Origin: Escherichia coli
GTDB lineage: Bacteria; Pseudomonadota; Gammaproteobacteria; Enterobacterales; Enterobacteriaceae
DNA: 64,000 bases
NCBI RefSeq assembly: GCF_003334315.1
Contig: NZ_QOWR01000021.1
Direction: 5' to 3' (one strand)
The position numbers and the translations under genes were made by a program. This document shows positions 2,901 through 9,160 of the stretch, piece by piece (position 1 is the stretch's first letter; each line of letters begins with the position of its first letter). The notes under the pieces are model-generated. The model was not told the DNA's origin and did no database searches. It saw only the letters and a list, made by a program, of their open reading frames with translations.

Positions 2901-3077
2901 TTTAGTTATCCTTCTTTGTAAAAGGGCCGCCAGTTGGCAGCCCCAGGATTTTTCCGCTAAATGATTCGCGTTGCAGGAAGGCGGCAAGTGAGTGAAGCCC
3001 CAGGAGCATAGATAACTATGTGACTGGGGTGAACGAGCGCAGCCAACGCATCTGCGGCGTGAAGCATGACGCGGAAA

Positions 3078-6858: not shown

Positions 6859-8073
6859 TTAATGATGAGCCCATTCGATGCTGTTCAGATCCACGCCCTG
6901 CTTGTACATTTCCCACAGCGGAGAAAGGTCACGCAGACGACCGATGGATTTACGAACTAACTCGATGGTGTAGTCGATCTCTTCTTCAGTAGTAAAACGA
7001 CCTAAAGAGAAACGGATAGAGCTATGTGCCAGCTCGTCGTTCAGCCCCAGCGCGCGCAGCACGTAGGACGGTTCGAGGCTTGCTGACGTACAGGCGGAAC
7101 CTGAAGAAACTGCGAGGTCTTTCAGCGCCATAATCAGCGACTCACCTTCAACGTAGTTGAAGCTGACGTTGAGAATGTTCGGCGCACCGTGTTCCAGGTC
7201 ACCGTTCAGGTAAACTTCTTCGATATCTTTGATGCCGTTCCACAGACGGTTACGCAGGCCGCGCAGACGTTCCATCTCGGTCGCCATCTCTTCTTTTGCG
7301 ATGCGATAGGCCTCGCCCATTCCGACGATCTGGTGAACAGGCAGAGTGCCGGAACGCATACCGCGCTCGTGACCGCCGCCGTGCATTTGCGCTTCGATGC
7401 GTACGCGCGGTTTACGACGTACATACAGCGCACCGATACCTTTCGGGCCATAGATTTTGTGACCGGAGAAAGACATCAGGTCAACTTTCAACTGGCTCAG
7501 GTCGATAGGCAGTTTGCCCACGCTCTGGGTTGCATCAACGTGATAGATAATGCCACGAGCACGGCACATTTCGCCGATAGCCGCGATATCCTGCACCACG
7601 CCGATTTCGTTATTTACGTGCATGATGGAAACAAGGATGGTGTCGTCACGCATCGCTGCTTCAAGTTCTTTCAGGTCGATAATGCCGTTACGCTGCGGTG
7701 CCAGGTAGGTGACTTCAAAACCTTCGCGCTCCAGCTGACGGCAGGTATCCAGTACCGCTTTGTGTTCAGTTTTGCTGGTGATGATGTGCTTGCCTTTTTT
7801 CTGATAAAAGTTGGCTGCACCTTTGATCGCCAGGTTGTCAGATTCGGTTGCACCAGAGGTAAAGACGATTTCACGCGGATCAGCGCCGACCAGATCGGCA
7901 ATCTGATTACGGGCGATATCTACCGCTTCTTCAGCCTGCCAGCCGAAACGGTGAGAACGGGAGGCCGGGTTACCAAAGGTTCCGTCCATCGTCATAAACT
8001 GCATCATTTTCTCGGCAACACGCGGGTCCACCGGCGTGGTTGCGGAGTAGTCGAGATAAATCGGTAATTTCAT
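6859..8073 (-). CDS. iscS: Cysteine desulfurase IscS (PLP-dependent)
   Basis: Class V aminotransferase motifs incl. [12 protein letters not shown] and SSGSACTS; start trimmed to [10 protein letters not shown] (404 aa). Confidence 0.96.
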
Positions 8074-8313
8074 TGCTCTATAAACTCCGTACATCACTCA
8101 ATGCAAGGAATCAGGCTACCGGCTGGATGTACGACCGTGTTTACGGAGCGCGATACGCCCCGGCCTGATTCTAATATCTTGTTATCTTTAACCTAACTGT
8201 TTCGGGTTTCAGCAAGTTGACAAACTTACGAATCTCCGGGAGCTTACATAAGTAAGTGACCGGAGTGAGTATGTGCAGTCAACGCAGATGCAACACGAAA
8301 CAGGACGGTTAAA

Positions 8314-8802
8314 TTAAGCGCGTAACTTAACGTCGATCGCGTCTTGTATGCGGGTGCGTGGCGCGTCGTGAGTATGCTGACGACCAGACACATCCAGCAC
8401 TTCCTGGTTATTAACCAGTTCGCCTAAAGTAATGTTGTTGAGAAAACCGGTGAGACGGTCGCTCAAATCACGCCACAGCGCGTGGGTCAGGCATTTATCG
8501 CCGCCCTGGCAGCCGCCTTTACCCTGACAACGGGTGGCATCTACAGATTCGTCAACGGCGCTAATCACTTCGCCAACGGCGATGCTGCTGGCATCTTTGC
8601 CTAACAGATAACCACCGCCTGGTCCACGTACGCTGGAAACCAGACCATTTTTACGCAGACGGGAAAACAGTTGTTCCAGATAAGAAAGGGAAATTCCCTG
8701 ACGTTCGGAAATATCAGCCAACGGTACCGGGCCCGCTTCAGAGTTGAGCGCAACGTCAAGCATTGCGGTCACGGCATAGCGCCCTTTAGATGTCAGTCTC
8801 AT
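8314..8802 (-). CDS. iscR: Rrf2-family [2Fe-2S] transcriptional regulator IscR
   Basis: 162 aa, Rrf2 HTH and Cys cluster. Confidence 0.95.
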
Positions 8803-8935: not shown

Positions 8936-8977
8936 TTAACCTTCAGTGCCATTTTTTTATCGTGGCGTTTGTACCTG

Positions 8978-9160
<183 letters not shown>

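Follow-up and report, generated by a model that had tools for sequence, protein, structure and literature searches.

A canonical iscRS element and an ERIC repeat in the iscR-iscS spacer of an Escherichia coli isc operon

Two elements between iscR and iscS

The DNA analysed here (hereafter, the window) is a stretch of 64,000 nt of chromosomal E. coli DNA that carries the isc operon on its minus strand. The untranslated spacer between iscR and iscS extends from 8074 to 8313 and measures 240 nt, as defined by the open reading frames and by the RefSeq starts in matching genomes. An earlier note on this DNA had given the same length, which the iscR stop and the iscS ATG confirm exactly. In the program-made list of open reading frames, iscS runs to a GTG at 8097 (412 aa); the annotated ATG at 8073 (404 aa) has a Shine-Dalgarno sequence upstream. 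A 49-aa open reading frame at 8244-8393 overlaps iscR out of frame and was set aside as a chance occurrence. The features of the locus, in the direction of transcription, are as follows.

8314-8802, minus strand: iscR coding sequence, 162 aa, with its TAA stop at 8316-8314 (list of open reading frames and RefSeq annotation of identical DNA from strain 510016)
8185-8313, minus strand: ERIC/IRU miniature inverted-repeat element, an insertion of 129 nt that the common E. coli spacer lacks (alignment with short alleles, hairpin, profile)
8228-8271, plus strand: central conserved core of the ERIC, the region of primers ERIC1R/ERIC2, with 36 of 44 bases matching the core sequence; this core is conserved in the alignment of copies
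8170-8186, minus strand: A/U-rich linker from the ERIC hairpin to the iscRS hairpin, predicted to be single-stranded; four positions differ from K-12
8075-8184, minus strand: complete iscRS 'iscR stability element', Rfam RF01517 (119.9 bits for a gathering score of 40, model positions 1-110 of 110)
8110-8169, minus strand: branched GC-rich (REP-like) hairpin of the iscRS element, present in the minimum free energy and centroid folds and containing the dyad discussed below
8070-8101, minus strand: RyhB-complementary site (RNAduplex), spanning the iscS Shine-Dalgarno sequence GGAG (8088-8085) and the start codon (8073-8071)
6859-8073, minus strand: iscS coding sequence, with its ATG at 8073-8071 (list of open reading frames and RefSeq annotation)

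The spacer is unusually long, as the earlier note had remarked: it measures about 111 nt in 4934 of 5425 complete E. coli genomes and exactly 111 nt in K-12. A 2009 study by Desnoyers is said to have given the same 111 nt, with a REP-like structure. Folded as the minus-strand RNA, the 240-nt spacer has a predicted minimum free energy of -79.9 kcal/mol, compared with -61.2 +/- 4.8 kcal/mol for 200 dinucleotide-preserving shuffles (z = -3.9), none of which is as stable; the folding proposed in the earlier note thus returns a stable structure. The GC-rich dyads mentioned in that note are also real, the quoted pair caggctaccggc...gccccggcctga (plus strand) corresponding to the outer stem of the branched hairpin at 8169-8110 (minus strand). 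This dyad sits in the known 111-nt element, outside the additional sequence.

The Rfam scan restricts the RF01517 match to 8075-8184, on the sense strand between iscR and iscS, and this part of the spacer shares with the iscRS family its position, sequence, predicted fold and RyhB-complementary site. The GC-rich hairpin lies upstream of the RyhB pairing site at the iscS translation-initiation region. In RNAduplex calculations using the K-12 RyhB sequence and limited to the RyhB core and to targets of 40-80 nt, nucleotides 39-70 of RyhB pair with 8101-8070 at -24.7 kcal/mol, compared with -15.2 +/- 3.3 kcal/mol for shuffled targets (z = -2.9), so that the complementarity near the iscS ribosome-binding site anticipated by the earlier note is present. 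An unrestricted calculation between full RyhB and the whole region produced a 95-nt interaction (-35.7 kcal/mol) that we judged implausible. The window and K-12 have the same sequence from 8125 to 8044, base for base also in the stretch targeted by RyhB. In comparison with the K-12 element that has been studied, the present locus has an extra 129-nt hairpin between the iscR stop and the element and a different inner hairpin (8149-8159), GGGGCG...CGCUCC instead of GGAGUG...ACUCC, with pairing kept. This inner hairpin exists in two haplotypes that both preserve pairing and are both found independently of the ERIC: GGGGCG-uauc-GCGCUCC in the present DNA, strain 14EC047 and E. albertii, and GGAGUG-cuaaau-ACUCC in K-12, NMBU-W10C18 and 33E.

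In K-12, RyhB pairs upstream of iscS, according to the summaries of the mechanism in PMC5040110 and PMC12533949. When RyhB has paired over the iscS ribosome-binding site, the downstream iscSUA RNA undergoes degradation, and the GC-rich branched hairpin shields the 3' end of the leftover iscR fragment. We consider the iscS-proximal 111 nt (8074-8184) to be the canonical E. coli iscRS element, which is intact in the window and should work as in K-12. By analogy, RyhB-dependent decay of iscSUA with accumulation of the iscR fragment, demonstrated for K-12 alone, should also be expected here.

The block 8185-8313, directly 3' of the iscR stop, is missing from K-12 and from the same 4934 genomes. 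Its RNA, taken alone, folds into one long imperfect hairpin (8313-8187, 127 nt) that begins 1 nt past the iscR stop and has a predicted energy of -45.8 kcal/mol (z = -5.2; 0 of 200 shuffles as stable). Six ERIC copies taken from other loci, with no iscR-iscS copy among them, gave a profile that matches 8312-8188 with E = 3.4e-25 (86 bits, model positions 4-128), and the block aligns over its full length with the ERICs located in cusC-cusF, ahpC-ahpF, aceF-lpdA and pgk-fbaA. The core query behind the 36 matches was derived from the ERIC-PCR primers ERIC1R/ERIC2, which we take to represent the core; this core being on the plus strand, the mRNA strand bears its reverse complement. The insertion, with one apparently duplicated dinucleotide included, is 129 nt long and its hairpin 127 nt, for an expected length of about 127 bp.

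The occupied site reads TA-[A TTT...GGT]-TA-AAGATAA and the empty site of E. albertii and E. coli 33E reads TA-AAAGATAA, the two matching except for one A in the A-run; in the Citrobacter copy, the second TA is CA. In review passages, ERIC/IRU are miniature inverted-repeat elements of 127 bp whose ends bear inverted repeats and TA. The window copy shares with them a length of about 127 nt, an imperfect palindrome, the conserved central core and, apparently, the TA at the insertion site. Like them, it is intergenic, presumably transcribed and part of a family with many dispersed copies: a sensitive BLAST search detects relatives at 33,248 places in 5424 E. coli genomes (median 7 per genome, 60-80% identity), and the relatives that we sampled are all intergenic and inside operons (cusC-cusF, ahpC-ahpF, aceF-lpdA and pgk-fbaA). 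Membership of 8185-8313 in the ERIC/IRU family is therefore established: the spacer contains an ERIC with its own 127-nt hairpin, whose insertion point appears to be the TA within the iscR stop codon.

The window copy is nevertheless divergent, with 65-69% identity to other E. coli ERICs and 36 of 44 bases in the core. Symmetric changes in both arms have given CCGGAG/CUCCGG in the place of CCUGGGG/CCCCAG, and the 3' terminal arm reads CGAAACAGUUAGGUUAAAG where other copies have the A/U-richer CGAAUUAUUUAGGG, this A/U-rich stretch being replaced here by CGAAACAGUUAGG. Two Rfam 'sRNA' families gave matches over the ERIC that we rejected as far sub-threshold (20-23 bits for gathering scores of 93-96): V_AS5, whose full 129-nt model covers exactly the ERIC at 8187-8309 (plus strand, 20.7 bits), and CssrA at 8259-8358 (plus strand, 23.4 bits). 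These two families may themselves derive from ERIC.

Both components of the spacer are thus of kinds already known, Rfam RF01517 iscRS on one side and ERIC/IRU on the other, and nothing in them is mechanistically surprising. A full-text search of the papers available to us returned no mention of an ERIC between iscR and iscS. Wilson and Sharp, in 2006, reportedly listed strain-specific ERICs.

Distribution and history of the ERIC allele

Of 5426 complete E. coli genomes searched by megablast with 8000-8400, 5425 contain the locus. The whole query is covered in 491 genomes, and the others match as two pieces that skip 129 nt; given the 5425 genomes examined, we discarded as implausible the idea that the short allele is an assembly artefact. 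The exact ERIC copy (at least 99% identity) is present in 490 of the 5426 genomes (about 9%), once per genome and always on the chromosome. Its carriers include E. coli HS (NC_009800, insert at 2699162-2699290), O26:H11, O111:H8/H11/NM, ETEC and livestock isolates, which belong to phylogroups A and B1. The element is unannotated in hundreds of public genomes (features 'none').

BLAST searches of the E. coli genomes detected no other ERIC with more than 80% identity to the iscR-iscS copy, so that no source copy is visible within E. coli. In a comparison of 4.5 kb with K-12, the window shows 39 differing positions, 13 of which are concentrated within 8149-8181, adjoining the insert. Beside the insert, the long allele keeps the sequence AAGATAA, as do the empty spacers (115 nt) of E. 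albertii and of 33E, a divergent E. coli, in which the empty site is flanked by TA (TA|AAAGATAA); the common 111-nt spacer lacks 4 nt at this place. The conservation of AAGATAA argues that the long allele is not a recent insertion into a spacer of the K-12 type. Judging from these sequence comparisons, the long allele is probably old and segregates in roughly 9% of E. coli, rather than being a fresh insertion.

We then compared the same site in other genera, using IscR as a query with one genome per species, which returned 80 loci. Spacer lengths among them range from 3 nt to 259 nt. Three of the genomes have a full ERIC there, identically placed and oriented (TAA|TTTGCCCG...).

L008:1993-2121: iscRS-site ERIC of Citrobacter werkmanii
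L009:1993-2120: iscRS-site ERIC of Enterobacteriaceae strain RIT691
L010:1993-2120: iscRS-site ERIC of Enterobacter asburiae

Internally deleted ERICs occupy the site in Phytobacter massiliensis (L015) and Enterobacter sp. ENT03 (L017), both arms resembling the window copy with p <= 0.008 relative to shuffles. The hairpins that follow iscR in Escherichia sp. ESNIH1, Kluyvera, Pseudocitrobacter, Superficieibacter, Pluralibacter and Shimwellia, although suggestive on visual inspection, have no similarity to ERIC beyond that of shuffles (p = 0.17-0.9), and no ERIC similarity was found in the long spacers of Pectobacterium, Brenneria and Rahnella. These ERIC-free spacers measure 208-259 nt in Rahnella (L046:1995-2204 and L049:1995-2204), Pectobacterium and Brenneria (L035 and L037). 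Just past iscR, the Rahnella spacer has a GC stem and then a T-run (AAAAAGCCCGCGG...CCGCGGGCTTTTTT), an arrangement that resembles an intrinsic terminator. The iscR-iscS spacer of Vibrio and Alteromonas is just 3-36 nt long.

In a neighbour-joining tree, the window ERIC clusters with the other iscRS copies, with which it shares eight site-specific characters and 74-75% identity, compared with 65-69% to other E. coli ERICs. Between the E. coli copy and the Citrobacter-type copies, 7 of the 41 hairpin pairs have changed on both sides with pairing kept. The copies of C. werkmanii, RIT691 and E. asburiae are mutually 92-98% identical, whereas the iscR coding DNA is 86-90% identical. The iscRS-site ERICs could correspond to an old orthologous element under constraint, to gene conversion, to horizontal exchange or to repeated insertion at one TA hot spot.

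Possible effect of the ERIC on isc expression

We compared in silico folds of the spacer flanked by 60 nt each of iscR and iscS, with the ERIC in place and with the ERIC removed. The structure of the iscRS hairpin is the same in both cases, and the RyhB site is unpaired with a mean probability of 0.40 when the ERIC is present and 0.32 when it is absent. With the same predicted fold and a similar access to the RyhB site, the known module should work unchanged. No second RyhB site was found in the ERIC, where the best duplex (-15.6 kcal/mol) equals the shuffle mean obtained for the real site (-15.2 kcal/mol). Consensus scans of 8074-8313 detected neither a sigma-70-like promoter nor a terminator-like site (stem and U-run); since no such signal parts the ERIC from the operon, it is presumably co-transcribed with it.

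We favour, with a probability of about 85%, a reading in which the spacer combines the canonical 111-nt iscRS element with an old ERIC allele, the two being independent of each other and both within the iscRSUA mRNA, with a small effect of the ERIC. Our best estimate is that the ERIC is a passenger that would alter the stability of the iscR segment modestly at most, and its net effect is most likely small.

Such an effect could arise at the iscR stop codon. A terminating ribosome covers roughly ten bases downstream and, because the base of the hairpin lies 1 nt after the stop, a ribosome terminating on iscR would have to melt the basal stems. The opened base could expose the 3' arm of the ERIC to RNase E, as in the Yersinia analogy, and RNase E access could shift how stable the iscR segment is compared with iscSUA. 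Another possibility is that the ERIC hairpin acts as an added barrier against 3' exonucleases. ERICs abutting a stop codon in E. coli (those of iscR, iscX, cusC and ahpC) have one common orientation, and those of aceF-lpdA and pgk-fbaA, located 68-180 nt from the upstream stop, have the opposite one; orientation thus fits the stop-codon pattern in six cases out of six, in what is a small and non-random sample of E. coli ERICs. The stop-adjacent ERICs of Yersinia enterocolitica were reportedly named 'B-oriented', under an A/B label, by De Gregorio in 2005.

According to the relevant passages of reviews, Yersinia ERICs at the 3' ends of genes lower the upstream transcript, in an orientation-dependent manner, by exposing an RNase E site located in their 3' inverted repeat. 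The window copy likewise abuts an upstream stop inside an operon, in the orientation of the stop-adjacent E. coli copies. It differs from the Y. enterocolitica ERICs by its altered A/U-rich 3'-arm stretch, and a comparable effect on mRNA is putative here. A putative RNase E site in the 3' arm may be weakened by this alteration. A scan for the RNase E motif RN|WUU gave five scattered matches, none in the 3' terminal arm, and was uninformative. Repeated palindromes in polycistronic mRNAs are also associated with differential stability of upstream and downstream segments in the case of REP/BIME stabilisers (e.g., malE-malF) and of the Correia elements of Neisseria; these belong to sequence families other than ERIC, Correia elements acting through RNase III and REPs being units of about 35 nt.

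A rival reading makes the ERIC a selected regulatory module, in which terminating ribosomes would hold the base of the hairpin open and RNase E would cut the freed 3' arm. Such a cut would part iscR from the downstream protective hairpin, leading to less iscR fragment and less apo-IscR under iron limitation; conversely, the hairpin could possibly stabilise iscR as a second exonuclease barrier. The position of the hairpin 1 nt past the stop codon, the occupation of the same site in the same orientation in several genera, the greater conservation of the Citrobacter/Enterobacter copies compared with iscR coding DNA, the seven pairs changed on both sides, the six-out-of-six orientation pattern and the orientation-dependent, RNase E-mediated destabilisation that the review passages report in Yersinia all speak for it. 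However, E. albertii and 91% of E. coli do without the ERIC, several genera have merely decayed or unrelated sequence at the site, and the A/U-rich 3'-arm stretch is altered in this very copy. Moreover, a palindromic mobile element can acquire paired changes at the DNA level, or owe them to different source copies, without selection on the RNA. We consider selection for such a role possible at best, and rather unlikely; our overall grading of it extends downward from there to frankly doubtful.

A broader version would make the post-stop ERIC hairpin an ancient, selectively kept second module of isc control in Enterobacteriaceae, linking termination of iscR translation to the cleavage or stability of the iscR segment, with a polymorphism that tunes the IscR:IscSUA ratio between lineages. 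This seems improbable to us. If it were true, the presence or absence of the ERIC in E. coli (HS, O26/O111 STEC) would tune the Isc-to-Suf switch and the RyhB response.

Two other readings are very weak. The insertion could transcriptionally uncouple iscSUA from iscR through an imported promoter or an intrinsic terminator, considering that MITEs elsewhere sometimes bear promoters, according to a review, and that the ERIC forms a strong hairpin; the empty result of the consensus scan and the sequence AAAGAUAACAAG that follows the hairpin, without a U tract, make this most unlikely. The earlier note had treated the entire spacer as the RyhB-responsive region with a protective structure that is known in E. 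coli. This description holds for 8075-8184, where the RyhB site and the protective hairpin are indeed found; taking all 240 nt as the standard architecture, merely long, is scarcely tenable, because the Rfam model and the K-12 spacer span just 110-111 nt, the K-12 alignment already contradicts it, and the extra 8185-8313 is an ERIC, 129 nt absent from 91% of E. coli and belonging to a dispersed repeat family.

The iscR-iscS spacer is a textbook example of how an sRNA induces differential decay of a polycistronic mRNA, and the mechanistic work has all been done on the 111-nt K-12 allele. In about one in eleven sequenced E. coli, EHEC O26/O111 and the commensal HS among them, a structured mobile element of 129 nt separates iscR from its 3'-protecting hairpin, and the ERIC allele is a ready-made natural variant of this sRNA-controlled junction. 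If the ERIC alters IscR output, Fe-S cluster homeostasis, the Isc/Suf switch and possibly aminoglycoside uptake would show natural variation; if IscR is unaffected, the module would tolerate a large insertion. For annotation, the locus is a reminder that enterobacterial spacers that look unusually long and structured most often owe this to the insertion of a repeat element.

Other repeats and RNAs in the window

The window contains a second full ERIC copy, whose orientation relative to the operon is the same as that of the iscR-iscS copy.

2949-3077, minus strand: ERIC between iscX and pepB, right after the iscX stop (3080-3078), profile E = 1.6e-37

Upstream of the iscR promoter, the trmJ-iscR spacer (8947-9101 and about 9024) contains REP-type repeats, with a 72-bit match to Rfam naRNA4. 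The K-12 trmJ-iscR spacer is 91 nt longer, which indicates that the copy number of these repeats is polymorphic. Among the ERICs used for comparison, those of cusC-cusF and pgk-fbaA (L087:391-515 and L089:401-514) are 98% identical, compared with 65-78% for typical ERIC pairs, and have opposite orientations relative to their operons.

There are no tRNA genes within the 64,000 nt of the window. Other, ordinary E. coli RNAs score above the Rfam thresholds in the window, namely IS128, ryfA, GlmY, ohsC, rncO, AsrC and ES036, in the following positions.

92-700, 37773-37920, 47100-47176, 50589-50803, 53586-54417 and 60884-60926: Rfam RNA features (the seven families just named)
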